A stretch of DNA of 64,000 nt from an uncultured Holophaga sp. (GCA_963664825.1 OY761614.1:1152001-1216000), one strand, 5' to 3'; numbered from the stretch's first letter, positions 9,963-27,990 are shown. Notes: generated from the letters alone by a model not told the origin. Numbers and translations: made by a program.

Positions 9963-10749
9963 ACCCAGGGTGCGATCAAGGATAGCGATCCGGAACGCGT
10001 CAACGACTTTGAGACAGAAAGTTGCCTGAATTCTCGCTTGGACCCACCCGCTGCGGAGAGGTGCCGGGGCCATGGACAAGTCTTTGACTTGACCACAGCC
10101 CCTTGGAAAACGTATCGATTCACCCCCCTTGTCCCTGTGACCACGTAAGCCGGTGGCAGGCAGCCATGATGGGCTGGTGATGTCCCGCTTGCCCTGGCAG
10201 CCTCAGGCTGGTTCCAGTGCCGGTAGGGGCTGGTTGGATCGGGCGGAGTGGAGGGCCCTGAGCAGCCAGTCGAAGTAGGGGACGCCGCGGATGCGGGCGG
10301 TGGTGCCCAGGCTCAGGAGGCGTTCGAAGAATCGCTTTCCGTCCGCGCTGGGCAGTCGCTGGAAGATCCGCTTGAGGATCACGAGGGGGCGCAGGGCCCG
10401 CTCGGCCGCATTGTTCGTCGGCTCCACGCCCTCGACCTTCAGGAACACCCAGAGCTTGTCCCATTTCCGGAGGAGGTCCTTCCCGAGGTTTCGGGCGGCC
10501 TTGTGATCCATCGCGCTGGCCTGGATCAGACCGCGTTTGAGCCGCGCCAGATTGATGGCGGTGCAGGCCCGGAGCTCTTTCCGGCTGATGTCGCCCGCCC
10601 GGAAGGTGTGCCACAGCGCAAAGATCTCCTCCTGCTCGGCGAGCAGTCGCTTTCCCAGTGCGGCCACCTCGGGCTTCTGGGATTCGCTCAGGGCGACGAA
10701 CTCGCGGCGCAAATGGGCCCAGCAGAACTGGCGAACGGCAGATTTTAAG

Positions 10750-12079
10750 GGTTCTTCACGTTTTTCCGGGGAAGGCCGCACGGATCTTAAGGAAGAAGTA
10801 GCCCTCATCCCGGTAGCCGTAGGCGATGCGCTTGAGGACTTTGATCTTGTTGTTGATCCCTTCCTGGACGCTGGTATTGAGCGGCCAGCGGCAATGGGAG
10901 AGGATTCCGTCGATCCGCTGGGCGAGATTCTTGGCGAACTTCACGAGGGGCTGGAGTCCACTTGAGGTGGCGAGTTCCATCCAGTTCTCCCAGGCCTTCA
11001 GAGCCCAGCCCTCCCGCGTGTAGCGCCACAGTGCCTTCAGGGCGTCTTTCAGCACGTAGGCGGTCATCAGAGGCTGGTTCGCGTCCAATAACTCGTTGAG
11101 GCGGACTTTGGCATCCCGATTCGGCAGGTTCTCCCAATTGCCCAGCAGGAGCCACTTCGCGCCCTTGACGAGCTCCCGCGAGGCCTTGTCGTGCCGGTAT
11201 CGATTGGCCTCATCCACCCGGATCCGGTCGATGACGTCATGGCCGTACTTTGCCACGACATGAAACTGGTCGTAGACGATCTCGGCGTTGGGACAGCGCG
11301 CCCGGACTTCGCCTTCGAAGGCCGCCGACATGTCTATGCCCACGGCCTGGATCCGTTTGCAGCCCTTCTTCCCGATCAGATCGAAGAACGGGCGGATGTC
11401 CTCGCGGCCACGCCCTTTCCCGACCCAGAGCACGCGACGCGTTTCCGCATCCGTGATGACCGTGGCATAGCTCTGTCCCTTGTGGATGGCGAATTCGTCC
11501 ATCAGAAGAAGCCTCGCCTTGCTCAGCTTCACGGGCCCAAGTTCTCGGTCCAGGTAAGCCTTGTCGATCGCCTTCACCGTGCCCCAGTGCAGGTCATAGT
11601 GCTCCGCGACCTGTTTGATGGGCATGACCTTGCAAAGCCGCGCCACGCTCGCGGCAAGCCGGTTCGTGATCCGGGCATGGGGCTCCAACCAGTCCAGGGC
11701 TTCCAGCTTCGGGCCGCACCGGGGGCAGGCTACTCGAGCCCGCCACACCACTAGGACTGTGTCGGCGTCGAACAGCGGAAGGTCGCGGATCTCCCGCTCT
11801 GACCAGTCGTGGACGCTCCGCACGAAATGCCCACAACCGCTGCACTTCCGGGGATGATCGCCGAACCCAAGCAACTCGATCCACACCTCGGCCCGCGGCC
11901 CCTTCACCCCGGCTTCGAAGCGCTCCACGATTCCGACGCGTTGCCCTTTCCACCCGCCCAAGCGGGACATAAGCTCTTTGGTAGGCAGTGGCGGCCTCCT
12001 TCATCTCGAGTTCTCGACAAACCCAAGATGCCTGAAATCCGCCACTGCCGACCTACTTCACGCAAATCCGCGAAGAACC
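10750..12079 (-). mobile_element. ISL3-family element, 1330 bp
   Basis: Ends GGTTCTTC...GAAGAACC; 8-bp AT-rich TSD ATTTTAAG at 10742-10749 and 12080-12087. Confidence 0.94.
10756..11988 (-). CDS. ISL3 transposase (start CTG 11988 or ATG 11970)
   Basis: Zinc finger CSGC/CPRC, MDEFA, IDMS, YDQFHV, QEGINNKIKVLKRIAYGYRD; AAGGAGG 6 nt upstream of the in-frame CTG. Confidence 0.93.
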   Translation of the reverse strand: MPTKELMSRLGGWKGQRVGIVERFEAGVKGPRAEVWIELLGFGDHPRKCSGCGHFVRSVHDWSEREIRDLPLFDADTVLVVWRARVACPRCGPKLEALDWLEPHARITNRLAASVARLCKVMPIKQVAEHYDLHWGTVKAIDKAYLDRELGPVKLSKARLLLMDEFAIHKGQSYATVITDAETRRVLWVGKGRGREDIRPFFDLIGKKGCKRIQAVGIDMSAAFEGEVRARCPNAEIVYDQFHVVAKYGHDVIDRIRVDEANRYRHDKASRELVKGAKWLLLGNWENLPNRDAKVRLNELLDANQPLMTAYVLKDALKALWRYTREGWALKAWENWMELATSSGLQPLVKFAKNLAQRIDGILSHCRWPLNTSVQEGINNKIKVLKRIAYGYRDEGYFFLKIRAAFPGKT

Positions 12080-13127
12080 ATTTTAAGGCGTTGTAGGCGC
12101 CGTAGCGGTCCGTGCCAATCACGCCTTGGAAGTCCTCGGGAAGTATCGCCTTTAGGGCCCTCGCCCCACGGGTGTCACTGAAGTGGAAGAGGGCCGTACG
12201 GGCGGAAAGGGCCACCCAGATCCAGTCCCGGTCCTTCCGGCCGAAGCCGGTCTCGTCGAGGTTGAGCACATCCGCCGTACGGATCTGCTGGGAGAGGTCC
12301 TCCCAGGCGGGGAGTAGGTGGCTCCCCAGCGCCACACCGCTCTCGTGCAGCCAACCGCGTGAGACCGCTACGCCCGTCACCTCCGAGAGGAAACGCTGGA
12401 GCGGCGTCAGGCTCATGCGGCCCTCTGTGCGCAGATAGGCCGCCGCAGCCTGAAGGCGCGGGCCGATCCCGCCCGGCGCAGCCTCTGGGGGAAGCGGCGC
12501 CTGCACCTTCCTCTGGCAGTGCGGGCAGATCCCCTCCTCCAGCGCGTAGGCGATGACTTCTGTGAGGCGCTGAGCCAGATCCACCACCCGGTGCAGGCGC
12601 GTCCCGGTGATGGCCCCTGAAGGAACCTCGCCTCGGCAGTGGGGGCAACAGGCGAGGGGCACCGAAACCGTACGGTCCTCGCTGCCTTCCGGCAGCATCA
12701 CCCGAGCGGATCCCTTCCGTCCCGGTTGGCCGCCGCGCTTGCGCCCCGTGGGCGGCGCCGGTGGCTTGGGTGGCGCCGCGGGTCCGTCCGAACTGGGGGG
12801 CTTGCTGCTGTTGCGACTGTCCTTCCCGAGGCGATCCTGGAGCGACTCCAGCAATTTTTCCAGGCGTTCCATCGCCTCCCGCAGGCAGACCATTTCCGCA
12901 CGCAGTTCCCCGTTCTCGGCAGCCAGGGCCAGATAACGCGGATCAGTCAGAACAGGATCAAGCTCCATCCTTCAGAATCTGACTGGTTTGAGACCAAAGT
13001 ACAAGCGAATTATTCACTTGCGGTGATTTTATCCTCAATCACGAGTTGAGCCTGCATGGGGGGGGGGTGAATCGATACTGGAAAACGCTGCGCGTTTCCC
13101 ACACCTCACAGCAGCCGAAGGAGATCA

Positions 13128-14117
13128 TCATGCTGCGATTTCCTTTTTTGGGGGATTGATCCACGCCGGACTTGGCAGTGCGGGCGGCTTGGGGCGTCCC
13201 TGGGAAAACCGCTCGGGGTGGGCCTGGAACGCCTGATCGAGCACGACCTGGCGGGCGGCGTGGATCTCCTCGGCGCGGCCTTCGTGGACGCTGGCGGGCG
13301 TCATCATGCCGATGCCGCTGTGCCGATGCAGATGGTTGTACCAATGGAAGTAGCGGCGGCAGAAGCTTCGCGCGTCCTCGATGGAACCGAACCGCTCCGG
13401 GAAGTCGGGGCTGTATTTCAGCGTCTTGAACTGCGATTCGGAATACGGGTTGTCGTCGGAAACGTGAGGCCGACTGTGGCTCTTCGTGACCTTCAGGTCG
13501 GTGAGGAGGGTGCCCACCGTCTTGGAAACCATGGCTGGGCCTCGGTCCGAATGCAGGGTCAGTTCACCCGGCCGGATGCCATGCTGGAGGAAGGTCTGGC
13601 GGTGGAACTCCCTGGCGAGGTCCTCGTCCTCCCGCTCCTGCACGGTCCAGCCCACGACCAGGCGGCTGAACAGATCGATGGTCACGTAGAGCTTGAAGCG
13701 GCTGCCTCGCACGGGACCCTTGAGATCCGTGATATCCCAGCTCCACACCTGGTTCGGCGCCTGCGCGCAGAGTTCGGGTTTCACATAGACCGGATGCCGC
13801 GCCTGGTCGCGCCGTTCCTTCACTTCCTGAGCCTCGTCGAGGATTCGGTACATGGTCCGCGACGAGCAGAGATAGCGGCCTTCATCCATCAACGTCGCCT
13901 GGATCTCGGCGGGCGCACGGCCCACGAAACGCTCCGAATGACACACCTCCAGCACTGCCTGTCGTTCCGAGTCCGAGAGCGCCCGCGGGGATTTGGGACG
14001 AGGCCCGGGTGGACCTTTCGGCTTTCGGCGGCGGTAGAAGGTCGCCCGCGATACGCACAGCAGATCACAGGCCGGCTGAATCCCGATCTCTTCCGCCAAG
14101 GCTACCGCCGCCGTCAT
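13128..14117 (-). CDS. IS3 OrfB (rve integrase-core transposase)
   Basis: WSWDIT, LHSDRG, DNPYSESQFKTLK DDE core; ATG overlaps the orfA stop (ATGA); frame is also reachable by -1 frameshift at the A7 run 14177-14183. Confidence 0.93.
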   Translation of the reverse strand: MTAAVALAEEIGIQPACDLLCVSRATFYRRRKPKGPPGPRPKSPRALSDSERQAVLEVCHSERFVGRAPAEIQATLMDEGRYLCSSRTMYRILDEAQEVKERRDQARHPVYVKPELCAQAPNQVWSWDITDLKGPVRGSRFKLYVTIDLFSRLVVGWTVQEREDEDLAREFHRQTFLQHGIRPGELTLHSDRGPAMVSKTVGTLLTDLKVTKSHSRPHVSDDNPYSESQFKTLKYSPDFPERFGSIEDARSFCRRYFHWYNHLHRHSGIGMMTPASVHEGRAEEIHAARQVVLDQAFQAHPERFSQGRPKPPALPSPAWINPPKKEIAA

Positions 14118-14527
14118 TCGCTGTCCTCGTTCTCGAACCGATGGCCCAGCGACAACTTCTCCATCAGTTCGGAGGCTTTTTTTGACATCTCCAGCATCCA
14201 CTCGGCCCGCGCCAGCTTGCGTTTCAGGGCCTTGTTCTCCTTCTCCAGTTCCTTGTTCCGGGCCTCGTGCGGATCCCGCGGCTTCGGTCTCGGCCCTGGT
14301 TTTACCGGGTTCAGGGCGCCCAACGCCCCGAGCTCACGCTGCTGCCGCCAACTCGAAAGGTGCGAGGAATAGAGTCCCTCTCGCCGAAGCAATGCGGCGA
14401 TCTGGCCCGGCACCGAGCACACATCCACCTCGGCCAGCACCTTCAACTTGTAGCTGGCGCTGAACCGCCGCCGTTTGGGGCGGCTCAACTCCACCTCCCC
14501 GTTCCCCAACTTCAAGACCTTGCTCAT
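14114..14527 (-). CDS. IS3 OrfA (HTH plus leucine zipper)
   Basis: RRRFSASYKLKVL...LLRREGLYSSHLSSWR...LEKENKALKRKL. Confidence 0.9.
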   Translation of the reverse strand: MSKVLKLGNGEVELSRPKRRRFSASYKLKVLAEVDVCSVPGQIAALLRREGLYSSHLSSWRQQRELGALGALNPVKPGPRPKPRDPHEARNKELEKENKALKRKLARAEWMLEMSKKASELMEKLSLGHRFENEDSE

Positions 14528-14596
14528 CCCATTTCCTTCCCCGCCCCGACAAAAGACTCTGAAGTGTCTCCTGTCTCAAAAAGCTTGGCGCGGGGG

Positions 14597-14743
14597 GATC
14601 TCGAAATTCGTACGGACCTGCACCAGATCCACGCCCCGAGCCGCAGTTTGGCGGGCCGCCAGCACCAGAGCGCGAATACGCTCCAAGAGCCACGTTTGGT
14701 CGGCTAGAACTGGGGGCACGGAGACAGGCTTCGCGTGCGTCAT
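14597..14743 (-). pseudogene. N-terminal 49 codons of a DUF1016/YhcG-like gene truncated by the IS3 element
   Basis: Not in ORF track; MTHAKPVSVPPVLADQTWLLERIRALVLAARQTAARGVDLVQVRTNFEI then IS end; ATGA overlap with the MNT stop. Confidence 0.7.
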
Positions 14744-15072
14744 TGCAGTCCCTGATGATTGCTCGCGTCCTTGCGTTCGTAGAACACGACCCCCACTCGC
14801 TCGATGTGTTCTTCGAGTGCGGGGTGTTTCAGTTCTGCGAAGAGGGAAAGATCGATGGTGTAGGGCAGCAGCAGATCGTCGAGGGCCTCGGCGATGGTCG
14901 CGCAGAGGGCGTCGGTGAGCGCCGCGCCATGGAGGGTCAGATCAATATCGGAGCCTGGCTTGTAGTTGCCCTTGGCGCGCGAGCCATAGAGCACGGCCTT
15001 TTCGATCTCGGGGAACCGGCCCATGACTTGGCAGATCTGTTCGACCGTTTGATTGGAGAGGCCATAGCTCAT
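14740..15072 (-). CDS. Minimal nucleotidyltransferase (MNT) antitoxin
   Basis: LYGSRAKGNYKPGSDIDL (GSx10DxD); 110 aa. Confidence 0.92.
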   Translation of the reverse strand: MSYGLSNQTVEQICQVMGRFPEIEKAVLYGSRAKGNYKPGSDIDLTLHGAALTDALCATIAEALDDLLLPYTIDLSLFAELKHPALEEHIERVGVVFYERKDASNHQGLQ

Positions 15073-15494
15073 AGATCGGGTTCTTCGCGGACGCCGAGGG
15101 TTTCGAAGGTGCTCGCCATCGCCGCGAAGGCGGGATAGAACCGCGTCAGGATGTCATGGGCGATGCCCTCGGCCACTTCAGGGTTGTAGGTGTGGGAAGT
15201 CAGGTTGCGCGCCTTGATCATGTCCATCCAGACCTGTCCCTCGCTGATCAGGGCATTCTTGAAAGCTTCCCGCGTCGCATTCTTCGAGCCGATGATGTCC
15301 ACAAAGCCCTGCTCTTCGAGATAGTCCTTCAGGACATTCCAGGCCAGTTCATGGGTGAATTCAAAGCCTTGGATCAGCCCCTGCTGCTCGAGATTGGAGA
15401 GCGCCCGCTGGTCGGCCAGCGCCACGGCGTCAGCAAGGGTCTGCAGGGCTTTGCCAAAATTATCGAAGCGTTGTTTCCAACGGATATCCTGCAT
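15069..15494 (-). CDS. HEPN / nucleotidyltransferase substrate-binding protein (HI0074-like), putative RNase toxin
   Basis: GLIQGFEFTHELAW and RNLTSHTY (Rx4HxY); coupled to MNT by ATGA overlap. Confidence 0.9.
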   Translation of the reverse strand: MQDIRWKQRFDNFGKALQTLADAVALADQRALSNLEQQGLIQGFEFTHELAWNVLKDYLEEQGFVDIIGSKNATREAFKNALISEGQVWMDMIKARNLTSHTYNPEVAEGIAHDILTRFYPAFAAMASTFETLGVREEPDL

Positions 15495-15497
15495 GAT

Positions 15498-16961
15498 CTA
15501 GCTCCTCGCCAGCATGGTCCGAATGGTCCCCAGTATTTCCGAACTCTCCGCGTCCAGGGCCACGATCTCATCCAGGATCTCCTCGGGGCTGCGCAGGGTC
15601 ACTTCCTCGCCGCCATCGGGGTTCTTCGTGGACAGATCGAAGCTGCCTTGGTCGATGCCCGCCACGTCCACGGTCCAGGACCTGGGGCCTTTCGCAAAGG
15701 TCTTCTGCAAGGCCACGAATTCGGCCAGGTCCTCGTCGTTGAGGGGATTGGTTTTGCCCATGTTGCGTCCAGGCTGGATCTGGTAGTACCAGACCTTCCG
15801 GGTGGGCGCGCCCTTCTCGAAGAACAACACCACGTTTTTCACGCCCGAGCCTTCGTATGTGCCACCGGGGCAGTCCAGCACGGTGTGCAGGTTGCATTCA
15901 AGCAGGAGCTTCTTGCGCAAGGAGGTGGAGGCGTTATCCGTATTGGATAGGAAGGTGTTCTTGAGAACGATGGCCGCCCGGCCCCCAGCCTTCAGGCTCT
16001 TGATGAAGTGCTGGAGGAACAGGAAGGCCGTTTCGCCCGTCTTGATGGGGAAGTTCTGCTGGACCTCCTGGCGCTCCTTGCCGCCGTTGGGTACTGCGGA
16101 CAGCACGATATCAAACCGGTCCTTCTCCTGGATGTCCCCCAGGTTCTCGGCCAGGGTATTGGTGTGCAGGATGTGGGGCGCCTCGATGCCATGGAGGATC
16201 ATGTTCATGATCGCGATGACATAGGCCAGGCTCTTCTTCTCCTTGCCGGTGAAGGTGCGTTTCTGGAGAGTTTCCTGGTCGTCTGTGCTGAGGCCGGGCT
16301 GGGCCTTGAGGTAATCGAAGGCCTCGCACAGGAAGCCCGCGGAACCCACGGCGCCATCGTAGATGCGCTGGCCGATTCGGGGCTGGACCACCTGGATCAT
16401 GGCGCGGATCAGGGGCCGGGGCGTGTAGTACTCGCCGCCGTTGCGACCGGCGTTGCCCATGTTTCGGATCTTGGCTTCGTAGAGATGGGACAGTTCGTAC
16501 TTCTCCACCTGGGTCCCGAAGTTCAGCTCATCGACCAGCTCGATGACTTCCCGCAGGGTGTAGCCGCTCTGGATCTTGTTCTTGATCTCCCCGAAGATCT
16601 CCCCAATCTTGTATTCCGTCGTATCCGGGCCACTGGCCCGCTGCTTGAAGCCGTGCAGGTAGGGGATCAGCTTCAGGTTCACGAATTCCTGGAGATCGTC
16701 CCCCGTCAAGGCCCTGTTGTGGTCCAGCCTATCGTCGGCCCCCTTGGGCATCGCCCAGGCTCCCCAGCGGTAGGGGGGATCCAGGATGAATACGTGGCGT
16801 CGGCCCGCCAGCTTGGAGCCAAGAGCATTCTCGGCCTCCAGTCCATCCAGGTATTTCAGGAACAGCAGCCAGGAGGACTGTTCGGTGTAGTCCAGTTCGC
16901 TGGTGCAGCCCGCATCCTTGTGCAGGATGTCGTCGATATTCTTGAAGGTCTGTTCGAACAT
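15498..16961 (-). CDS. hsdM: Type I R-M HsdM-like N6-adenine methyltransferase with non-canonical catalytic motif
   Basis: GEYYTPR, motif I YDGAVGSAGFL, MNMILHG, LFLQHF; motif IV reads SAVPN where (A)NPPF is expected; RBS GAAAGGA before ATG 16961. Confidence 0.88.
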   Translation of the reverse strand: MFEQTFKNIDDILHKDAGCTSELDYTEQSSWLLFLKYLDGLEAENALGSKLAGRRHVFILDPPYRWGAWAMPKGADDRLDHNRALTGDDLQEFVNLKLIPYLHGFKQRASGPDTTEYKIGEIFGEIKNKIQSGYTLREVIELVDELNFGTQVEKYELSHLYEAKIRNMGNAGRNGGEYYTPRPLIRAMIQVVQPRIGQRIYDGAVGSAGFLCEAFDYLKAQPGLSTDDQETLQKRTFTGKEKKSLAYVIAIMNMILHGIEAPHILHTNTLAENLGDIQEKDRFDIVLSAVPNGGKERQEVQQNFPIKTGETAFLFLQHFIKSLKAGGRAAIVLKNTFLSNTDNASTSLRKKLLLECNLHTVLDCPGGTYEGSGVKNVVLFFEKGAPTRKVWYYQIQPGRNMGKTNPLNDEDLAEFVALQKTFAKGPRSWTVDVAGIDQGSFDLSTKNPDGGEEVTLRSPEEILDEIVALDAESSEILGTIRTMLARS

Positions 16962-17290
16962 GAAGTTCCTTTCCATGCCCGACAGGACCTTCTGGAGGGG
17001 GCTCCCTTGAGCGATCACGGCAGCATTACAAACTTGTCATGAGTCTACCCCATCCCTCACCCAGGGCCGAGCCAGGCGGCCTCGAATGGCGGGTCCCGGA
17101 GCAAGGTCCAATGAGGCGCCGTCCCATCCGAAGCGGGTTCGCCGGGCGGGAGTCCCCTCCGCGCGCGTTGCGCGCTCCGGGCCGCGACGCTGGCTGCGCC
17201 CGCGCCTTTTCGTGTGTGATCGTCCACTGGACGACCACACACGGGCGCTACCGGCGCGCCATCGTCGATTTCGACTCCCGCTTCAAAAAC

Positions 17291-17338
17291 CACCAACGAA
17301 AAGGACGGGGCCAAGTGGCCCCGTCCTTTTCGTTGGTG
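17291..17338. terminator. Perfect 23-bp hairpin; probable native ssrA terminator displaced by the island
   Basis: CACCAACGAAAAGGACGGGGCCA-AG-TGGCCCCGTCCTTTTCGTTGGTG, overlapping the duplicated tmRNA 3' end; followed by a T run on the minus strand. Confidence 0.75.
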
Positions 17339-17348
17339 GAGGTGGCGG
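17333..17348. repeat. att site: duplicated tmRNA 3' end
   Basis: TTGGTGGAGGTGGCGG identical to 33993-34008. Confidence 0.9.
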
Positions 17349-17409
17349 CAATCAAATTAGAGATGCAAACTCATCATTCAAAATGGTTAACAAAAACAGC
17401 AATCTAGAC

Positions 17410-17431
17410 TTGCCCCCAAAGTTGCCCCCAA
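17410..17431. repeat. Putative integrase arm-type sites (distal end)
   Basis: TTGCCCCCAA twice at 12-bp spacing, the same motif as 33860-33890. Confidence 0.7.
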
Positions 17432-17456
17432 AAAGAGGGGCTTTCACATTGTTTTG

Positions 17457-17918
17457 TCAGCCCACTACCACCCACACAGGCCGTCCCTCTTCACGGGCCT
17501 TGCGGATAGCTTCAGCGGCCTTCTTCGCCGTGAGGGGTTCGGAGCCTTCCTCGCCACGGTGGACGAGCGCGATGCCATCCTCGCCCACGGGAGGCAGCTT
17601 CACGAGGTCAGCCGCGAAGCTCTCCGCCACGAGCCTGCCGCCGATGAGCCGGGGAGGGTCGGGCACCCGGAAGCCTTTGCCCGTGGTCAAGGCCTCGACC
17701 TCCAGGCCATAGAGTCCGGCCAGGGCCCGGAGAGTCGCGTCCGTGGGGCTCTGCCGCTCGTGTTCCCAATGAGAGATGGTCTGCTGGTTGGTGCCCAGAG
17801 CTTCAGCGAGGGCGAGTTGGCTCCACTTCCAGACCAAGCGCACGTACCGGATGCGCTTCCCCAGAGTGTCTGGCTTATCAGAAGCCTTGCCATAACCACC
17901 TCGCTTGGGTCGGATCAT
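17457..17918 (-). CDS. XRE-family HTH regulator
   Basis: LGKRIRYVRLVWKWSQLALAEALGTNQQTISHWEHERQSP; start uncertain. Confidence 0.82.
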   Translation of the reverse strand: MIRPKRGGYGKASDKPDTLGKRIRYVRLVWKWSQLALAEALGTNQQTISHWEHERQSPTDATLRALAGLYGLEVEALTTGKGFRVPDPPRLIGGRLVAESFAADLVKLPPVGEDGIALVHRGEEGSEPLTAKKAAEAIRKAREEGRPVWVVVG

Positions 17919-18142
17919 GCCGCACCTCCCAGAGGAGAGGCAAGGCCTGAATAACTCCAAACGTGTTGTTTGAGCCGCCCGGCATCCTCGCTCTTGAATC
18001 CAGAGCGAGAGAGCTGGCGAAATGCCATGGCTCAACTGTAGCTGAAGCCGAGATAACCAGCCCATCTTCCCCGTAGTTGCAGGAAACTCGCGGAAGAGTG
18101 CAAAATACACCTTTCGAGTGTTTCATAAACATAGGGGTTGCC

Positions 18143-19156
18143 ATGACACAGGCGCTGTGGGGCATGCACGCAGGTTCCGAAGGGTCTGCGGACCCACTCT
18201 TCCGCGAGAGCGGATACCTCGCTCTCAGTTGGTCTGCCTTGGGCAACCTGTCGGCCCTGGAACACACACGGGAAGCCTTTAAGACCGCGCTCTCGGCGGC
18301 CTACCCGGACAAATCCGCTGGGGCCATCCCCGTGGAGGCTGGCGTGCTGTTCCGTTTCCTCCACGAAGTGAATCCGGGGGACATCATCGCCTACCCCAGC
18401 CAGGAGGACCGGCAAATCCACTACCTGCGGGTGAAGGACACTCCCTACGAATACCGGCCTGACCTTAGCGAGGAGTTCCCGCACCTTCGCGCCGCAGACC
18501 TTCTGAAGAGCATCCCAAGGAACGAATTCAGCGCCGGGGCCCTGAATGAGATCGGTGCCGCAATCAGCCTTTTCAGGATCAAGAACAACACCGAGGAGTT
18601 TCTGGCCAAGCTCGCGGGAACGCCTGTGAAGGCAAAGCCACAGGAGGAGGACCAGGAGGCCAAGGCTACCCTCCCAAATCTGGAGGAGAGCACCCAGGAC
18701 TTCGTGCTCAAGCGGCTCTCTCTGCACCTCAAGGGGCATCCCTTCGCCCACTTTGTGGCCCACCTGCTGAACCTCATGGGCTATCGCACCCAGACCTCAC
18801 CACCCGGGAAGGACGGCGGCATCGACATCCTGGCCCACAGCGACCCGCTGGGGGTCACGGGGCCATTCCTCAAAGTGCAGGTCAAATCCACGGAGGGACA
18901 GACCGGCGAGAAAGATGTGCGCGACCTCGCAGGGCTCCTGCACGACCACGAGCGCGGGCTGTTCGTCACCCTGGGCACCTTCAACCTCGACGCCCGCAAG
19001 ACCGCGCGTGGGCCCAAAGGAATCCGCCTAATCGACGGCGCCGAAGTTGTAAGCTTCATCTGCGAGCACTACGAGCGACTCGACCACAAATACCGGTCAA
19101 TGCTCCCCCTGCGCCGGGTCTGGATTCCCGACCCACCTATCAGCGCGGGCGATTAA
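18143..19156 (+). CDS. mrr: Mrr-like (type IV) restriction endonuclease
   Basis: C-terminal Mrr_cat FAHFVAHLLNLMGY...KDGGIDI...VQVK...GLFVTLGTF...IRLIDG. Confidence 0.88.
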   Translation: MTQALWGMHAGSEGSADPLFRESGYLALSWSALGNLSALEHTREAFKTALSAAYPDKSAGAIPVEAGVLFRFLHEVNPGDIIAYPSQEDRQIHYLRVKDTPYEYRPDLSEEFPHLRAADLLKSIPRNEFSAGALNEIGAAISLFRIKNNTEEFLAKLAGTPVKAKPQEEDQEAKATLPNLEESTQDFVLKRLSLHLKGHPFAHFVAHLLNLMGYRTQTSPPGKDGGIDILAHSDPLGVTGPFLKVQVKSTEGQTGEKDVRDLAGLLHDHERGLFVTLGTFNLDARKTARGPKGIRLIDGAEVVSFICEHYERLDHKYRSMLPLRRVWIPDPPISAGD

Positions 19157-19240
19157 GGCATCTATATTGCCGGAGCACTATTAGGCTTCCCTGTGCCCGA
19201 TGACCGCCCCATGATCTACGCCCTGTCTGGAGGCAACCCT

Positions 19241-19588
19241 ATGGGATTTAAGCTCGCCTGTTTCTCCTTCCTCACGACCTGCGCGGCACTGGTGGCGCAG
19301 GTTCCCGCGCGACCGGACATCTCCCCTGACGCAAGGGTTCGGGCGGCTTACTTCCTCCCGGATGCCAAGCTGAAGCCGGTCACGGACCCGGCATTCCTGA
19401 AGCTCTTCGGGAAGGAAAAGAAGGAGCATGTCTTCCAGGCATCCATCGTAGGGATGGACGGCAACGTGGCCTGGATCAAAAGCCCAAGACTGGAAGAGGC
19501 CACCCTCGGCGGCAAACCACAGCCCTACAGGTTCACGATCATGGTGGACCGCACACCAGCCGCCAGTGCCGAAGGAGCGCAGCGATGA
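19241..19588 (+). CDS. Small exported hypothetical protein
   Basis: RBS GGAGG; signal-peptide-like MGFKLACFSFLTTCAALVAQ; ATGA coupling to the next gene. Confidence 0.65.
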   Translation: MGFKLACFSFLTTCAALVAQVPARPDISPDARVRAAYFLPDAKLKPVTDPAFLKLFGKEKKEHVFQASIVGMDGNVAWIKSPRLEEATLGGKPQPYRFTIMVDRTPAASAEGAQR

Positions 19589-20157
19589 CCAACAACTGTC
19601 CAGAATGCGGAAGCGATCAGACTCAGGCCATCCGGATGGTGCTGGCCACCGGAACCCACGAAGGTGGAGGCATGACTCTGGGCTATGCCCCACGAGGAGG
19701 GTTCGGCATCGCCGGAACGGGGATGAACCTTCAGAGCACCCTAGCCGCGAAATACGATCCAGGAATGAAGCCCGCACGATTTGGAACAGTCCTTTTCCCG
19801 TTCCTTGGAGGGATCCTGGGCTTCATTGGAGTCGGCATGCTAATCGCCCTCCTCGCTAACCCACCGCAAGGGCCCAAAGAAATCCAGACGATCATCGTGC
19901 TGATCGCGATAGTGGTTTTCATCCTTCCGGCTATTCTCTGTTTCAAGGCTCTCATAGGCGGGAATGCACGGCATGAGAGCAATGTAGCCCGCTGGGAGGA
20001 GAAACGCCGGATCGCGGACCATGCTTGGGTTTGCCTGCGCTGTGGAAAAGACTGGATGCCGGGTGAAACGACGCCTCCGGTGATACCCAGGACACAGGAA
20101 ACGGCAAATGAGACTTGGAACTCACCTCTTCCGTCCCCACCTGACTTTGGGTCATGA
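19585..20157 (+). CDS. Hypothetical membrane protein, two TM helices between split CxxC pairs
   Basis: CPECG at N-terminus, two hydrophobic segments, CLRCG near C-terminus. Confidence 0.72.
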   Translation: MTNNCPECGSDQTQAIRMVLATGTHEGGGMTLGYAPRGGFGIAGTGMNLQSTLAAKYDPGMKPARFGTVLFPFLGGILGFIGVGMLIALLANPPQGPKEIQTIIVLIAIVVFILPAILCFKALIGGNARHESNVARWEEKRRIADHAWVCLRCGKDWMPGETTPPVIPRTQETANETWNSPLPSPPDFGS

Positions 20158-20541
20158 ATCACCACAAGAGCCGCCCCTCTGGGGGGCCTGAGGACCACCC
20201 CTGAGGCCAAAGCAACCACCGAAAGCCTCTTTCTGTGAGCCCATTTTCCAATTAGTCCCAGTTGGCTGGATGTCACCAGAAAGTGCAATTCCCACGCAGT
20301 CCACACCAGGGGAGCGATTCATTCGTGGTGCGAGTTGGTCGTTTATTTGCATCATTAAACCCCCTGCTTGCCCTTGTTGACGGGCCCCGTGCCAAGGCCC
20401 CATCACAGGGCCCTAAAAGCATGGCCGTGGATTGCCACTGATTTCGCCCTTGCACGTTTCCAGGAGCATCGGGTTAGGTTCCCGACATGCCCTTCGGTAG
20501 GCCACGCGCTACCATCAGGTATGCTTCTCTAAGGGAAATTC

Positions 20542-23500
20542 ATGTCCGCTCTCGCAGTGCTGCTGTCCTCATTCCGTCAAGCCGCCGTCACCGAGCGCGA
20601 GAAGGGCACCTACTTCGAGGAGCTGACTCTCGCTTACCTGCGCAACGAGCCCAGCTATCGGGACTACTACAGCGACGTGTGGACCTATACGGAATGGGCC
20701 AAGAGCCAGGGACTGGACGGCAAGGACGCGGGCATCGACCTCGTGGCCAGGGCGGCCGGGACGGGCGAGTTCCACGCCATCCAGTGCAAGTTCTATGCGC
20801 CGGACTACAAGGTGCAAAAGGCTGACATCGACAGCTTCTTCACGGCCTCGGGCAAGAAAATATTCACTCATCGCATCATCGTCGCCACCACCAACTTGTG
20901 GAGCGAACACGCTGAAGATGCCCTCCGGGACCAGCAGCCACCCGTCACCAAGATCGACCTCCAGGCCTTGGAAGAGAGCCAGATCGACTGGTCCCAGTTC
21001 AAGCCGAAGGCCGCGCCAGTCCTGAAGCCCAAGAAGCAGCTCCGCCCCCACCAGGTTGATGCCTTCAAAACCGTTACCTCCGGCCTACTTGAAGCGGCTC
21101 GCGGCAAGCTCATCATGGCCTGCGGCACCGGCAAGACCTTCACTAGCCTCAAGATCGCCGAAGCTTTGGCGGGCAAGGGCAAGCGTGTGCTCTTCCTGGT
21201 GCCGAGCCTCGCCCTGCTCTCCCAGGCCTTGACGGAGTGGACCCAGGAAAGTGGCACGCCCCTCCACAGCTTTGCCGTGTGCTCCGACAGCGATGTGGGC
21301 AAGAAACGGAATAGTGACGAAGACATCGTCCAGACCTTCACCCACGAGCTGCGCTATCCGGCCACCACGGAACCATCGCGGCTGGCTGCGGAGATGGCCA
21401 AGCGTCAGGACGCTGGGCACATGAGCGTGGTGTTCAGCACCTATCACAGCATTGAGGTCATCCATCAGGCCCAGCATGACCACGGGCTGGAGGCCTTCGA
21501 CCTGATTGTGTGCGACGAGGCTCACCGCACCACCGGGGCCACCTTTGGCGACCAGGACGAGAGCGCCTTTGTGCGGGTTCACGACGCCGACTACATCCGG
21601 GCCGCCAAGCGGCTCTACATGACGGCGACCCCTCGCATCTACGGGGACGGCGCCAAGGCCGCTGCCGAGAAAAACGACATTGCTATCTGCTCCATGGATG
21701 ACGAGGCCCTCTACGGCAAACAGCTTCACGTCATCACCTTCTCGGAAGCCGTGAAGCGCGGGCTCCTGGTGGATTACAAGGTGCTGGTGCTGGCGGTGGA
21801 GGAATCCCACATCAGCCGGAGCCTTCAGAAGCTCCTGGCCGATGGAGATAACCAGCTTCGGGTGGATGATGCCGCCAAGATCGTGGGCTGCTGGAAGGCC
21901 CTGGCCAAGCAAGGCGTGACTCACGACCTCAACGGGGACGAATCCCCTATGAAGCGGGCCGTGGCCTTCTGCCAGGTCATCGAGCCTGGAGGCCCCAAGG
22001 CCAAGACCCACAAGGTCAGCTCCAAGAACATCGCGGGCATGTTCCAGGCCGTGGTCGAGGCGTATCAGGCACAGGAGGAGATTGAAGAAACCAGCCGCCT
22101 GATCTGTGAGGCCGCCCATGTGGACGGCAGCATGAACGCCACAGAGAAGGAAGCCAAGCTCAACTGGCTGAAGGCTGATAGCCCAGAGAACACCTGCCGC
22201 ATCCTCAGCAATGTCCGCTGCCTATCCGAAGGCGTGGACGTGCCAGCCCTGGACGCCGTGCTCTTCCTCACGCCACGGAACTCCCAGGTGGATGTGGTGC
22301 AGTCCGTGGGCCGCGTCATGCGCAACGCCCCAGGCAAGAAGCGGGGCTACGTCATCCTCCCCGTCGTCATCCCCGCTGGAGTCGAGCCCCACGAGGCCCT
22401 GAACGACAACAGGACCTATGCCGTGGTCTGGCAGGCTCTCCAGGCCCTCCGCTCCCATGACGACCGCTTCGACGCCATGATCAACAAGCTGGAGCTGAAC
22501 GGCCCGGACCCCCGGAAGATGGAAGTCATCGCCGTGTGCGGCAAGGTGCCCACCAAGGTCAGCAAGGGATGTTCAGCCAGCCAAAAGAAGCTGCCCCGCC
22601 AAGGCTCGCAAACCATCGGCGTGGCGGAGACTCCCGTGGCCTACCAGGCGCCTCTACCCTTCGAGATCGGCGAGATCGAACGGGCCATCTACGCCAAGGT
22701 GGTCCAGAAGTGTGGCAACCGGCACCACTGGGAGGAATGGGCGGGCGACATCGCGAGGATCGCTCGCACCCACATCGACCGCATCACCGCCATCCTGGAG
22801 GCTCCCGAGCACAGAAAGGAGCAGGCTGCCTTTAAGGCCTTCGCCGACGAGCTGCGGGATGATCTGAATGACAGCATCACAAATGCCGAAGTGGTCGAGA
22901 TGCTGGCCCAGCACCTCATCACCAAGCCCGTCTTCGATTCCCTGTTCTCCGGATACAGCTTCGCGAGTCAGAACCCTATCTCCCAGGCCATGCAGGGCGT
23001 TCTGGATGTGCTCCAAGAACACCGGCTGGAAAAGGGAACCGGCACACTGGAGGCCTTCTACGAAAGCGTGAGGATGCGAGCGGACGGCATCGAGAACGCC
23101 GAGGGCAAGCAGAAGATCGTCGTGGAGCTATACGACAAGTTCTTCCGCAACGCCTTCCCGAAGATGACCGAGCGCCTGGGCATCGTATACACGCCGGTAG
23201 AGGTGGTGGACTTCATCCTCCACAGCGTGAACCACCTGCTGAAGACCGAGTTCGGACAGACCCTGGGCAGCAAGGGCGTCCATATCATCGACCCCTTCAC
23301 CGGCACGGGCACCTTCATCACCCGTCTGCTCCAGAGCGGCCTCATCCAGCCGGGCGAACTGGAGCACAAGTATCGCCACGAGATCCACGCCAACGAGATC
23401 GTGCTGCTGGCCTACTACATCGCCGCCATCAACATCGAAGCCACCTACCACGACCTAGCGGGCGGGGCATACGTCCCCTTCGAGGGCATCTGCCTCACCG

Positions 23501-25476
23501 ACACCTTCCAGCTCTACGAGAAGGAAGACATGATCAGCGCCCTGCTGGCAGATAACAGCGACCGGCGGAAGCGACAGAAGGATCTGGATATACGGGTGAT
23601 CGTGGGGAATCCGCCGTATTCCGCCAAGCAGGAGAGCGCCAACGACAATAACGCCAACGTGGCCTACCCCAGTCTGGACGAACGCATCCGAGCCACCTAC
23701 GCCGCCAGATCCACCGCCACCAACAAGAACGCCCTCTACGACAGCTACATCCGGGCCATCCGCTGGGCCAGTGACCGCATCGGGAAGAGCGGCATCATCG
23801 GGTTCGTAACCAACGCGGGATGGGTGGAAGCCAACACCGCAGCCGGACTCCGCAAGTGCTTGGTCGAGGAGTTCTCCTCCATTCATGTCTTCCACCTCCG
23901 GGGCAACCAGCGAACCCAGGGGGAGTTGTCACGCAGGGAAGGAGGAAAGATTTTCGGCGGGGGTAGCCGCGCCCCCATCGCCATCTCCTTCCTTGTGAAG
24001 AACCCCGCCGCGAATAAGCAGGGCCAGATCCGCTTCCACGACATCGGTGACTACCTAAGCCGCGAAGAAAAGCTTCAAAAAATCATCGAGTTTCAGGACA
24101 TCGCGGGGATCGAGAGCGCCAAAGGTTGGCAGGCCATCGCCCCTGATGACCACGGGGACTGGCTCAAGCAGCGTGATGACAGCTTCGGTGAGTTCATCGC
24201 TATCGGGGACAAGGAGAACGTGGGGGCAAAGGCACTGTTTGAGAATTACTCACGTGGCCTTGAAACAGCTCGAGATCCTTGGGTTTTCAATATGTCCCGT
24301 GAAGCGCTGATTTTGAACATGAAACGCATGATTGCTTGTTACAACATGCAAGTTGCTTCCTTCGAGAGAGAACACACTGGTCTAGATCGCAAATCGAAAG
24401 CTGAAATTGCCGGGAATTACATCGAAACAGACTCAACTCAAATTAGTTGGTCAAGCAGCCTTGTGGCACATCTAGTTTCTTCAAAAAGAGCGGAGTTTGA
24501 GACTACGAGATTAACGAAATCTCTATACAGACCCTATTCGAAGCAATGGGTTTATTACGACGGGATGTTCAACCATCGAGTTGGCCAAATGCCGAGCATA
24601 TTCCCAAATGCAGATGCTGAAAATTTGATAATCATGACAAAGGGAAATTGGAAAGGGGACGGCCAATTCGCAATAATCAGTAATTCCATAGCGGCACTCC
24701 AGGTTGATGGTGGCTCTCAGTGTTTCCCCCTCTACCTCTACGACGAGCCCACCAAGGGCACCCAGCCCGGCCTCTTCGACGAGGAGCCTCCCCAGCCCAC
24801 CCGCCGGGACGCCATCACGGACGAGGGCCTGGCTCACTTCCAGGCTGCCTATTCCGGAGAGAAGCTCACCAAGGAAGACCTCTTCTACTACGTCTACGGC
24901 CTGCTCCACTCCTCTGACTACCGCATGGCCTACGCCGACAACCTGGGCAAAGAGCTACCTCGCATCCCCTGCGTGAAGGAGGCCAACGCCTTCTGGGCCT
25001 TCTCCAAGGCGGGCCGCGCCCTGGCCGACCTCCATCTCAACTACGAAACGGTGAAGCCCCACCCCGTCGAGATGGTGGCCACGGGCCACCTTACCGATGC
25101 CGCCTACCGCGTGGAGAAGATGCGCTACGGCAAGACCAAGGTGGACGGCAGGGCCGTGGAGGACAAGACCACCCTGATCTACAACGACCACATCACCCTC
25201 AAGGGCATCCCCCTGGAGGCCTACGACTACGTGGTCAACGGCAAGAGCGCCCTGGATTGGGTCGTGGAGCGCCAGTGTGTGAAGACCGACAAGGACTCGG
25301 GCATCGTCAACGACGCCAACGCCTGGGCGTGTGAAACCATGGGCAACCCCAAATACCCCCTGGAACTCTTCATGCGCGTCATCACCGTCAGCCTGGAGAC
25401 CCAGAAGATCGTGAAGGGGCTCCCGCCATTGACGTCGATGGGAATTGCCAAATCTGCCAATCAAGATGATGATTAA
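20542..25476 (+). CDS. Type ISP single-polypeptide restriction-modification enzyme (LlaGI/LlaBIII-like)
   Basis: Mrr-type nuclease (GIDLVA...AIQCK), SF2 helicase (MACGTGKT, DEAH, QSVGRVMR), MTase (DPFTGTG, GNPPY), C-terminal TRD; 1644 aa. Confidence 0.95.
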   Translation: MSALAVLLSSFRQAAVTEREKGTYFEELTLAYLRNEPSYRDYYSDVWTYTEWAKSQGLDGKDAGIDLVARAAGTGEFHAIQCKFYAPDYKVQKADIDSFFTASGKKIFTHRIIVATTNLWSEHAEDALRDQQPPVTKIDLQALEESQIDWSQFKPKAAPVLKPKKQLRPHQVDAFKTVTSGLLEAARGKLIMACGTGKTFTSLKIAEALAGKGKRVLFLVPSLALLSQALTEWTQESGTPLHSFAVCSDSDVGKKRNSDEDIVQTFTHELRYPATTEPSRLAAEMAKRQDAGHMSVVFSTYHSIEVIHQAQHDHGLEAFDLIVCDEAHRTTGATFGDQDESAFVRVHDADYIRAAKRLYMTATPRIYGDGAKAAAEKNDIAICSMDDEALYGKQLHVITFSEAVKRGLLVDYKVLVLAVEESHISRSLQKLLADGDNQLRVDDAAKIVGCWKALAKQGVTHDLNGDESPMKRAVAFCQVIEPGGPKAKTHKVSSKNIAGMFQAVVEAYQAQEEIEETSRLICEAAHVDGSMNATEKEAKLNWLKADSPENTCRILSNVRCLSEGVDVPALDAVLFLTPRNSQVDVVQSVGRVMRNAPGKKRGYVILPVVIPAGVEPHEALNDNRTYAVVWQALQALRSHDDRFDAMINKLELNGPDPRKMEVIAVCGKVPTKVSKGCSASQKKLPRQGSQTIGVAETPVAYQAPLPFEIGEIERAIYAKVVQKCGNRHHWEEWAGDIARIARTHIDRITAILEAPEHRKEQAAFKAFADELRDDLNDSITNAEVVEMLAQHLITKPVFDSLFSGYSFASQNPISQAMQGVLDVLQEHRLEKGTGTLEAFYESVRMRADGIENAEGKQKIVVELYDKFFRNAFPKMTERLGIVYTPVEVVDFILHSVNHLLKTEFGQTLGSKGVHIIDPFTGTGTFITRLLQSGLIQPGELEHKYRHEIHANEIVLLAYYIAAINIEATYHDLAGGAYVPFEGICLTDTFQLYEKEDMISALLADNSDRRKRQKDLDIRVIVGNPPYSAKQESANDNNANVAYPSLDERIRATYAARSTATNKNALYDSYIRAIRWASDRIGKSGIIGFVTNAGWVEANTAAGLRKCLVEEFSSIHVFHLRGNQRTQGELSRREGGKIFGGGSRAPIAISFLVKNPAANKQGQIRFHDIGDYLSREEKLQKIIEFQDIAGIESAKGWQAIAPDDHGDWLKQRDDSFGEFIAIGDKENVGAKALFENYSRGLETARDPWVFNMSREALILNMKRMIACYNMQVASFEREHTGLDRKSKAEIAGNYIETDSTQISWSSSLVAHLVSSKRAEFETTRLTKSLYRPYSKQWVYYDGMFNHRVGQMPSIFPNADAENLIIMTKGNWKGDGQFAIISNSIAALQVDGGSQCFPLYLYDEPTKGTQPGLFDEEPPQPTRRDAITDEGLAHFQAAYSGEKLTKEDLFYYVYGLLHSSDYRMAYADNLGKELPRIPCVKEANAFWAFSKAGRALADLHLNYETVKPHPVEMVATGHLTDAAYRVEKMRYGKTKVDGRAVEDKTTLIYNDHITLKGIPLEAYDYVVNGKSALDWVVERQCVKTDKDSGIVNDANAWACETMGNPKYPLELFMRVITVSLETQKIVKGLPPLTSMGIAKSANQDDD

Positions 25477-25504
25477 ACGTCACTAACAATTTAGGAGTCC
25501 AGCA

Positions 25505-27442
25505 ATGGCCCTATACGATTTATCAGTTGATCGCGACCACATTACAAGCTTGTCGAAGGGTAGTCCTATCCTTGCGATTGCCGAATTACTTTGGAATGCC
25601 TGGGACGCAGACGCCAAAAACATAGTTGTGAAAATTGCGAGGACCGGGCTCAATGGTATTGAAAAAATAACAGTTACAGATGACGGCAATGGTCTTGAAG
25701 GAAAAGACCCAGAACCTCTATTTACTAAAATTGGTGGTAGTTGGAAAAATTTAGCAAAAAGAACCCCGACTGGAAGACCGCTTCACGGAGAGCGTGGGAG
25801 GGGGAGACTCAAGGCACTTTCGATTGGAGACCAAATTCGCTGGCAAATACCAGACAGATCTTCAAAAAAACTTCATCAGATATCCCTTAACGCAGGAACA
25901 ATAAATAAAATTGAATTAAGTAGTGTTGATATAGAAGATAGTTCAGAACGAAAATCTGTTGTAGAAATTACAGAAATTGGAGACAGGGCTGGAGAACTAT
26001 TAAATAGAGACAAGGTAGAATCTATTCTTGCAATTCATTTCGCGCTATCAATAAAAAATTATCCAATTGTTTCGATCAAATTTGACGGCAAAAAAATTGA
26101 CCCATCCATATTGATTGAGGAAAGCACTTCAATTCCCATTCCAATTATCCATGAAGGTAAGGCATACAATCCAATTCTTGAGATCATTCACTGGAAGCAT
26201 AAAACAGAAAGAAAACTATATATTTGCGACTACAAAGGTAGAATTCTTAACGATACAGATGTAAAACTAAAACCAGGGTCAGAGTTTAATTTTTGCGCAT
26301 ATATTAGGTCTGATGAATTTCTTGATTCGATTGGCGATTCAAACGACATAATTATATCAGGCGGTCTGTGCAATAAAATCCTTGAAGAGGCCAGGGATCA
26401 AATGCGCACCTATTTTAGAGAAAAGAAAGCCTTAGCTGCGTCCGGATTGGTTAAATCCTGGAAGGATGAGGGCATATATCCCTTTGAAGAGGACTCAAAT
26501 GACCCTGTAGAAGTAGTCAAGCGTCAAGTTTTTGACATCTGCGCCTACAACATAAACGAATACTTAGATGGTTTTTCGAACCATGATACACAATCTAGAC
26601 AACTCACTTTTTATATGCTTAGCGAAGCAATTAATGAACATCCATCAGCACTGAAGCGCATATTTGAAAAAGTGTTGAAACTGCCAAAGGACAAGCTAGA
26701 AGACCTTGCGGACATATTTGACCAGGCTGATATTGGCAAAGTCCTTGAGGCAACCCAAATGTCTCTTGGAAGACTTGCATTCCTTGACGGATTAAATGCT
26801 CTTATTTTTAACGACGAAAATTCAAAGCTATTGGGAGAAAAACACCACCTACACGCCATGCTGGAGCACGAACCATGGGTGTTTGGTGAGGAATATGCCC
26901 TTGCGGCAAGCGAAGTGACGCTTACTACACTACTTAAAAGGCACCTACCCAAGCTGAGGCCTGGCGAAAAAATAAAGGATGTCAAATCAACAACTGGGAA
27001 GTCACTTCGAATAGATATGCTTCTTGGGTGTGAGATTGGGACAGGTTCAAAAGAATTTAAGGAATTTCTCGTTGTCGAACTTAAAAGACCAAGCGTAGTG
27101 ATCGGACTTAAAGAACAAAATCAATTACAGGAATATGCCCACGCTGTGTCAGAGGATCCTCAATTTGACAAAAAGAACACAAAGTGGACTTTTATCATTG
27201 TGAGTAAGGATTTGCATCCAATTATTGAAAAAGCTGTTGCGCAAGATCATTTACCTCCAGGTTTCTTTCAGGCAAATTCGAACCTTAAAATCGGCGCAAT
27301 GACTTGGGGACAAATTCTCACTAGAAGCCGCGCTCGCCTTCAGTGGTATAGAGAGGCCATGAGTTTCGATCTAAATGAATCTCAAGCTCTTGATTACATG
27401 CGGAAAAAATATAGCGAATACTTACCATCTAAGCTAAAATAA
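25505..27442 (+). CDS. GHKL (HATPase_c-like) ATPase fused to a C-terminal PD-(D/E)xK-type nuclease; AT-rich
   Basis: AELLWNAWDADA, TDDGNG, HGERGRGR; C-terminal PWVFGEEY...RIDML...VVELKRP...QLQEY; RBS AGGAG. Confidence 0.82.
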   Translation: MALYDLSVDRDHITSLSKGSPILAIAELLWNAWDADAKNIVVKIARTGLNGIEKITVTDDGNGLEGKDPEPLFTKIGGSWKNLAKRTPTGRPLHGERGRGRLKALSIGDQIRWQIPDRSSKKLHQISLNAGTINKIELSSVDIEDSSERKSVVEITEIGDRAGELLNRDKVESILAIHFALSIKNYPIVSIKFDGKKIDPSILIEESTSIPIPIIHEGKAYNPILEIIHWKHKTERKLYICDYKGRILNDTDVKLKPGSEFNFCAYIRSDEFLDSIGDSNDIIISGGLCNKILEEARDQMRTYFREKKALAASGLVKSWKDEGIYPFEEDSNDPVEVVKRQVFDICAYNINEYLDGFSNHDTQSRQLTFYMLSEAINEHPSALKRIFEKVLKLPKDKLEDLADIFDQADIGKVLEATQMSLGRLAFLDGLNALIFNDENSKLLGEKHHLHAMLEHEPWVFGEEYALAASEVTLTTLLKRHLPKLRPGEKIKDVKSTTGKSLRIDMLLGCEIGTGSKEFKEFLVVELKRPSVVIGLKEQNQLQEYAHAVSEDPQFDKKNTKWTFIIVSKDLHPIIEKAVAQDHLPPGFFQANSNLKIGAMTWGQILTRSRARLQWYREAMSFDLNESQALDYMRKKYSEYLPSKLK

Positions 27443-27932
27443 TTGTCGTGAATATAAATTAATTCACCAAATAATCAATACGTGCCAGCACTTTTTATAT
27501 GTTTTTTGCATTTTATCATCCCCAATCAAATGTCGTTTACTCGACGTAGGGTGCGAAAAGGGATGGACACGCCAGCTAGGCCAGTCGGGCACCAGGCCCG
27601 ACGAGCCGCATCGAAGACAGCGATGCGCTCGGCTGATACACCGTGAAAGTTGGTGGTGAGACAGCCCCATGGCCGCGCCCGTGGGAAGTCCCAGTAGGCC
27701 GCCAGCGTGGGCCAGTGCTCGCTCTACTGGGGGTAAGGCGGCTGTAGAGGTTGAGGAGACTCTGGGCCTGTTCTTGCGTGTAGTGAGCTTGTGGCAAAGT
27801 GCCCTCCCAATACTGAGCCCCTTCCATCATGAACAGAATTCAGCGCACAGACAGCAGGAGACCCCACACACAGGCATGGAGCCTCCTTTCAGGCTGGGTT
27901 GTCGCCGTGAATCGGACCCTGCACTTCATCCA

Positions 27933-27990
27933 TGTCCCAAGTGCCCCAGCCGGCCCAGATTAAGTCGTAGCGAAGGCTTCCGATGGGACA
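27933..27990. repeat. Iteron-like TGTCCCA-type repeats at the 3' end of the primase gene
   Basis: TGTCCCA, TGCCCCA, CGGCCCA at 9-bp spacing (27933, 27942, 27951) plus inverted TGGGACA at 27984. Confidence 0.55.

Follow-up and report, generated by a model that had tools for sequence, protein, structure and literature searches.

In HsdM the motif IV pocket hardly varies, and the specificity of restriction-modification enzymes of type I is thought to shift by means of HsdS. An hsdM gene from an uncultured Holophaga sp., in which this pocket has been rebuilt, raises the question of how such a change arises and what an enzyme carrying it could still do. The gene lies in a stretch of 64,000 nucleotides (GCA_963664825.1 OY761614.1:1152001-1216000), which is referred to here as the window. 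An original prediction made from the sequence of the window proposed that the gene had been repurposed rather than having decayed at random, and that its product could be a decoy or sensor that releases a HEPN toxin encoded next to it. In this work we analyzed the gene, its homologues and its surroundings. From these analyses we conclude that the pocket signature is real, recurring, rare, polyphyletic and co-varying, and that the SAM site and the fold are kept.

Results

The target-base pocket of the window HsdM

The hsdM reading frame (Table 1) runs through 487 codons without a stop or a frameshift, and its product shows the HsdM_N and N6_Mtase domains, the HsdM fold and the intact SAM-binding loop of motif I, YDGAVGSAGFL, that are expected of an EcoAI-like type I HsdM. 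In the AlphaFold model (pLDDT 81, with the loop 294-306 poorly predicted) the nearest structures are 3UFB and 5YBB, with a TM of 0.78 to 3UFB, and residues 289, 333 and 376 are placed at strand ends. The protein is 70-84% identical to members of the family that have NPPF at motif IV. By descent and fold it is an HsdM, yet SAVPN and Y369 stand where an m6A or m4C methylase would carry NPP(F/Y/W) and the motif VIII Phe, and the cognate hsdS and hsdR are missing from the operon at this locus. A sigma-70-like promoter was looked for upstream of the gene and none was found.

Table 1 Features of the hsdM locus, in window coordinates
Feature	Position	Strand	Evidence
hsdM, 487-aa modification subunit of type I, target-base pocket rebuilt	15498..16961	-	PADLOC PDLC03021 E 1.8e-143, domains, fold
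Motif I (SAM binding) YDGAVGSAGFL, intact	16329..16361	-	
Motif IV patch, SAVPN replacing ANPPF (residues 288-292)	16086..16100	-	alignment to homologues
I333L, co-varying residue, end of strand 323-334	15963..15965	-	9/12 variants, 0/243 normals
Motif VIII patch, F369Y, A372S, T376N (T368-N376)	15834..15860	-	Y369 + N376: 10/12 variants, 0/243 normals
HEPN gene, HI0074 family (PF08780/TIGR01987), RX4H motif RNLTSH intact, passenger	15069..15494	-	
MNT nucleotidyltransferase (PF18765), GS..DxD motif intact, passenger	14740..15072	-	
DUF1016/YhcG 5' stub, 49 codons, cut at IS end	14595..14743	-	
IS3-family element, in which IS66 (about 10110-13079) and ISL3 (10750-12080) are nested; GATC on both flanks	9991..14597	-	
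tmRNA 3'-end 15-bp copy and terminator hairpin, end of adjacent P4-like island	17291..17348	-	

Conservation was assessed in 81 sequences, i.e. 80 loci from GTDB and one family relative, whose identity to the window protein is 70-82%. ANPPF is present at motif IV in all 81 homologous loci, and GTFQGAGVKT in 62 of them, while the other 19 retain the F, the A and the T; the consensus given in the original prediction is therefore correct, and both altered segments lie where it had placed them. The window protein departs from 23 of the 299 columns that are conserved at 90% or more. Eight of the columns broken are invariant (81/81), namely A288S, N289A, P290V, F292N, I333L, F369Y, A372S and T376N, and all of them fall in the pocket, so a chance origin of the pattern is rejected. 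The clustering of changes in the target-base pocket had been foreseen, except for I333L, which had been missed.

A sequencing or assembly error behind SAVPN was ruled out by contigs from two runs of different studies that reproduce both pocket patches exactly: that from run X2 spans positions 14569-17136 and that from run X5 positions 15777-16200, both with zero mismatches to the window, and one of these runs may be its source sample. The four family relatives G034, G271, G123 and G472 all have NPPF. A compensated frameshift or a small inversion at motif IV was discarded, given that the DNA alignment to G034 contains neither, and so was adenine-directed (DGR-like) mutagenesis, since the codon changes fall on C, G and T.

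In the alignment, positions N289, F292 and F369 of the window protein correspond to N266, F269 and F345 of EcoKI, which bind and sandwich the flipped adenine, and changes at N266 or F269 abolish the activity of that enzyme (PMC2647291). In PacII the mutant in which NPPF was turned into APPA loses m6A (PMC5100572), and the corresponding positions are used in the PacII pocket (PMC9613975). Given that methylation is killed in these published mutants when motif IV loses its Asn and Phe, normal m6A writing by the window protein is very likely dead.

Recurrence of the signature

The whole signature or part of it was found in 13 further sequences: P0043, P0121-P0126, P0250, P0251, P0253, P0254, P0316 and L110. 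P0043, with SAVPN and GVYQGSGVKN, is the single variant among the 119 best full-length homologues; P0121-P0126 and P0316 were recovered by searching with the motif regions, P0250, P0251, P0253 and P0254 as cluster mates, and L110 by a pattern scan of metagenomes, in which it was the one HsdM among ten matches. Counting the protein of the window and leaving L110 as an extra, variants make up 13 of the 541 proteins whose motif IV is readable, in a set that was deliberately enriched for them. Motif IV takes the forms SAVPN, AAVPN and SAIPA. When the 12 full-length variants were compared with 243 normals, L333 as well as the pair Y369 and N376 proved to be frequent in the former and absent from the latter (Table 1), and motif I and NGGEYYTPR were retained in 12/12 variants; P0125, P0250 and P0251 are partial mosaics that carry the motif IV patch only. 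The recurrence of the signature is solid, and since the same residues appear in other lineages the variant is not unique to this assembly, which supports the proposal of repurposing over random decay.

The signature is rare in the collections that were scanned. The variant pattern gave no match in two scans of viral contigs, nor in two other groups of genomes (0/401 and 0/401); in 400 other genomes of the same phylum it gave four matches, none of them an HsdM and without excess over the reversed control. Of 149 plasmid records the two best are both NPPF, and a short query had no match among plasmids, every match in phage sequences was below 60%, and 108 additional cluster members included no variant among the 89 with a readable motif IV. 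An intact variant operon was not found; the two variant loci examined as DNA are that of the window, which is cut by IS3, and L110, whose contig ends 1 kb downstream. Other alterations of motif IV were seen in two distant HsdM representatives, P0438 and P0487 (NPPI with a TYQGS loop, and NLPV).

Phylogeny and transfer of the patch

Near-copies aside, the variants are 68-90% identical among themselves. A quick tree (LG+G4) was obtained from 45 rows, i.e. 10 variants, the three nearest normals of each and 12 random normals, after removing 14 pocket columns. In this tree, 8 state changes are needed for the 10 variants and the starred branches force at least 7, and a single variant clade is rejected (p-AU 1.9e-6), so that the idea of one clade or subfamily is refuted. 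The tree is unrooted and gains are indistinguishable in it from reversions; both require multi-base swaps. Most variants adjoin a normal NPPF relative that is up to 96% identical. For instance, P0122 and its NPPF mate P0249 are 96.3% identical, and 16 of their 19 differences lie within residues 292-379; P0043 is 94.6% identical to its NPPF mates, and the 14 mates listed, out of 86, are all NPPF. Over the stretch that separates the motifs, the window protein shares 99% identity with a normal and 90% with the best variant, and the P0125/P0316 group alone is nearer to its own members than to normals. The absence of a single clade together with these normal near-relatives indicates that the signature is a rare allele and not a subfamily, one that was likely brought in small patches into many hsdM backgrounds of the EcoAI family.

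The codon evidence comes from two sequences, the window and L110, which have identical codons at 288, 291, 292, 333, 368, 369, 372 and 376, while some third positions differ; ACA at T368 is common to both and occurs in 0/10 of the normals compared. These shared codons argue for common descent of the patch and not for convergence. The full change amounts to about a dozen base substitutions, which makes repeated point mutation unlikely, and the simplest reading of the sequences is that an old patch of single origin was likely moved by short-tract recombination. It counts against this explanation that neither a fixed donor family nor a genomic template was found: 0/150 representatives (32 of them without coverage of motif IV) carry the signature, and a template search of the genome with 5/27 and 9/39 mismatches permitted returned the gene itself only.

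The dN/dS values of the window gene against the four family normals are 0.14-0.20, compared with 0.07-0.15 among those normals, and outside the pocket it departs from conserved residues at 32-39 positions versus 8-16 in them. Several variants, though not all, exceed their nearest normal in conserved-residue departures (window 10 vs 2, L110 13 vs 0, P0123 4 vs 5). The gene is under constraint yet drifting faster. In a relative from run X6 (one contig, depth 8), an in-frame deletion of 1032 bases (residues 85-429; window 15676/16709) removes the HsdM catalytic domain and the HEPN-MNT pieces are retained. Together with the extra departures of several variants, this deletion also fits short-lived or dispensable alleles.

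Shortened hsdM genes were also noticed elsewhere. Mini-hsdM genes that keep, in frame, both ends only and are followed by HEPN are present in X6 and G040, the latter with an 85-residue remnant ahead of a broken HEPN (L105 309-575). In addition P0560, P0561, P0563, P0565 and P0570, from one cluster, are 177 aa each on contigs of up to 29 kb; P0560, the one that was read, stops just short of YYTPR, which marks a place in hsdM where stops or insertions recur.

Loss of hsdS and hsdR

The window contains neither hsdS nor hsdR, as had been pointed out. The only Methylase_S matches of the genome are 1.5 Mb away, in another type I system, whose HsdM is NPPF and 25% identical to that of the window; a query with EcoAI-type hsdR returned one short remnant only, 1.8 Mb away. 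N- and C-terminal remnants of an EcoAI-type hsdR lie close to each other on opposite strands at G000:C1:2971137-2971826 (L104), 1.8 Mb from the window. Normal members of the family are found in M-S-R operons, with an hsdR of the EcoAI family (NF046051) in G034. Of 80 normal loci, many of which are ended by contig edges, 76 gave a match to hsdS and 67 a match to hsdR.

The similarity to DUF1016 breaks off precisely at the end of the IS3-family element, on whose far side lies an MFS gene. The element is flanked by GATC/GATC here and by GGTT/GGTT at its second copy, and the flanks of other copies are similar (GATT, GTAC, GATC). The equal flanks make a clean IS3 insertion following an earlier deletion possible, but given that the break coincides exactly with the IS end and that the other copies have similar flanks, an IS-linked deletion of part of the operon is favoured. 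The deleted part was sought elsewhere in the 3.47-Mb single-contig genome and was not found. It is likely that hsdS and hsdR were lost at the IS3 end, and therefore the variant hsdM is probably a stranded relic in this genome; the caveat in the original prediction, that hsdS may have gone from downstream in an IS3-linked rearrangement, best explains the orphan state. Within the element, ISL3 is nested in IS66 and this in IS3, and IS66 and ISL3 each have at least 12 near-identical copies in the genome.

On its other side, the operon is located just outside a P4-like island (17349-33994) lying at the tmRNA 3' end, with a 15-bp att copy at 17334-17348; the complete NPPF operon of G034 also adjoins tmRNA. 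The island includes integrase, AlpA-like and primase-like genes, and its cargo comprises an enzyme of type ISP (20542-25476), a PDC-S02 gene that is Mrr-like (18077-19156) and an ATPase-like gene of low GC (25505-27442). In L110 the variant hsdM comes first, followed by a REP-type transposase (named from sequence) and by the hsdM tail once more, after which the contig stops; the transposase with palindromes and the repeated tail occupy positions 1-970, and the L110 hsdM has short in-frame inserts. In G006, of the same genus, the start of an hsdM, found where a contig ends, is preceded by an integrase-like gene (L102 397-1577), and a second hsdM start of 49 bases lies near a tRNA gene (L140 10203-10250); mobile elements may target the 5' end of hsdM in these cases.

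The HEPN-MNT and DUF1016 genes

Downstream of hsdM the arrangement is the one originally described, a 3-nt gap before HEPN and ATGA overlaps between HEPN and MNT and between MNT and the start of DUF1016. The HEPN protein has 141 aa and is of the HI0074 type; an ABC ATPase domain was not found in it, in contrast to the ATPase-HEPN fusion that defines PrrC and is kept silent by the R-M complex. The adjacency of a HEPN with RX4-6H and an MNT with GS..DxD is that of the type VII HEPN/MNT systems (the MntA model scored 37.7, below its cut-off of 60), and the MNT is likely the antitoxin of the HEPN. In type VII systems, the RNase toxicity is reportedly neutralised by AMPylation. The DUF1016 stub has no Pfam match and is 53-63% identical to YhcG-type genes in 3/80 loci.

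These genes are equally found with normal methylases: HEPN-MNT in 4/80 NPPF loci and YhcG/DUF1016 in 4/80, the hsdM being NPPF in every case, and in L023, L032 and L043 the hsdM-HEPN-MNT order of the window is followed by hsdS and hsdR. We consider them, for this reason, ordinary passengers. In the 6.7 kb of L110, the only other variant locus examined as DNA, neither HEPN nor MNT was matched.

Discussion

From the sequences we infer the spread of the patch by recombination, its use within M-S-R operons, its selection for something new within those enzymes, and a reader role. The last of these is ranked first among the possible functions, with a writer of a new mark nearly equal to it and a small share left to readings that are not listed here. 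Tentatively, an EcoAI-family HsdM with the recurring patch would most likely read a modified base. Type I enzymes already sense methylation, and choose whether to cut, through the flipping of the target base into the pocket of M. N289A would open space beside N6, and a base that is shifted or modified could be accommodated by the polar residues that are new to the pocket; a complete M-S-R enzyme with the variant M would then cut modified and not unmodified DNA. It is possible, if somewhat more doubtful, that a patch of less than 300 bases recombined into an EcoAI-family hsdM makes the operon a modification-dependent nuclease against phages methylated by its normal relatives. Such an allele would pay only where the adjoining hsdS is also that of common neighbours that methylate, the phages of which come methylated at those sites. 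Being useful only when rare and with a shared HsdS, it would be expected to show rarity, repeated import onto local backgrounds and no lasting clade, a pattern that agrees with the sequences. Some points count against the reader. Methyl-adenine readers usually have aromatic cages, and F292N removes the stacking ring. Moreover, a host switching to the allele would at first carry methylated sites and need restriction alleviation, through which ClpXP could carry it. This alleviation is known for types IA and IB, in which ClpXP degrades HsdR on unprotected chromosomes (PMC12707154).

A hardly less plausible alternative, in line with the methylase of another substrate named in the original prediction, is an active writer that would put its methyl group on a different base or atom at the position presented by HsdS, in which case a new R-M specificity would be obtained by an hsdM patch swap alone. 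The SAM site is intact in all the full-length variants, the polar groups were added as a conserved set (S288, N292, Y369, S372, N376), and self-protection would be simple. The three strands that end at 289, 333 and 376 neighbour each other in the HsdM fold, so that the Asn may have been relocated rather than lost. There is also a precedent in the m4C type I subunits, which derive from m6A ones by a pocket change (PMC5100572, PMC9613975). However, known amino-methylases, m4C subunits too, retain (N/D/S)PP(Y/F/W) (PMC3874165). The m4C subunits sort into a family of their own and the SAVPN-type variants do not, and few other DNA positions are known to tolerate methylation harmlessly.

It is improbable that the variant is the second M subunit of an enzyme with M1 and S, subject to gene conversion with a neighbouring NPPF copy and serving an unmethylated or differently marked half-site. 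Such M1M2S systems exist (PMC5100572), concerted evolution would produce such closeness to the local NPPF genes, and a partner could have sat among the lost downstream genes. Nevertheless, the single-contig genome has no second close hsdM, and none of the 80 NPPF loci contains another full copy at ≥60%. P0249 is represented on five contigs of up to 126 kb, and in its cluster only P0122, on one contig of 4.9 kb, is a variant; P0122 is encoded at full length on a contig from short reads, and a twin nearly identical to it would tend to interrupt such a contig. An assembly-competent dead methylase seems just as improbable. It would restrict without modifying, ClpXP alleviation would spare the chromosome, and escaping phages would get no protective mark; the EcoKI changes (PMC2647291), the EcoAI type of the family hsdR, within the range of ClpXP control (PMC12707154), and the rarity and faster drift, which suit a costly state, agree with it. 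Nonetheless a single substitution would be enough for this, and a conserved set of eight residues moving between lineages would be superfluous. The originally proposed stand-alone decoy or sensor guarding or releasing the HEPN toxin, for which the translational coupling of hsdM, HEPN and MNT and the precedent of PrrC, a guard embedded in hsdMSR (10.1101/2024.01.29.577857), could be invoked, is very improbable, as HEPN-MNT follow NPPF hsdM genes, are missing from L110, remain in the X6 relative that lacks the catalytic domain, and include an MNT of their own with an intact motif.

Compared with known systems, the window protein resembles the EcoAI/EcoEI-like (type IB) HsdM in domains, fold and motif I, and its relatives reside in M-S-R operons with NF046051 hsdR; it differs in SAVPN, L333, the Y-S-N of motif VIII and the lack of adjoining hsdS and hsdR. 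In the PacII-type m6A/m4C systems (M1 NPPF, M2 NPPY; PDB 7VRU), the exception that we found to the near-invariant motif IV pocket, a pocket change is likewise tied to a change of specificity; there M2 keeps the NPP-aromatic motif, forms its own family and needs M1 (PMC5100572, PMC9613975). In contrast, in the window protein the Asn, the first Pro and the aromatic residue are all replaced, the variants are polyphyletic and have neither NPPY nor a family of their own, and the genome holds no partner M, the downstream part having been lost. The laboratory mutants of motif IV (EcoKI N266 and F269, PacII APPA) lack the same Asn and aromatic residue (PMC2647291, PMC5100572), whereas the present signature is natural, consists of eight co-varying changes and occurs in many lineages. 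As for a HEPN inside a type I operon, as in PrrC-like guards, here it is an RX4H HEPN with an MNT, not a PrrC, and occurs equally with NPPF hsdM. The logic proposed for the reader is that of type IV restriction (McrBC, Mrr, GmrSD), to cut when modified with no mark of its own, although type IV enzymes use dedicated reader domains, and among those seen in PMC12707154 none is a type I enzyme whose methylase pocket has been rebuilt; reader activity is proposed here from sequence.

No description of this pocket motif was found in the full-text literature, REBASE, subscription journals and supplements being outside that scope and able to hold one, and a switch from writer to reader by a pocket patch is apparently undescribed for type I methylases. 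The patch-wise spread over distant backgrounds is unusual in itself, and alleles of this kind are hidden within 90% clusters and annotated as ordinary methylases; the changes in the pocket are isolated in pairs such as P0122 and P0249 (96% identical). A non-NPP pocket that is natural and recurs would mean either a new DNA mark or a reversed R-M logic in an old machine.
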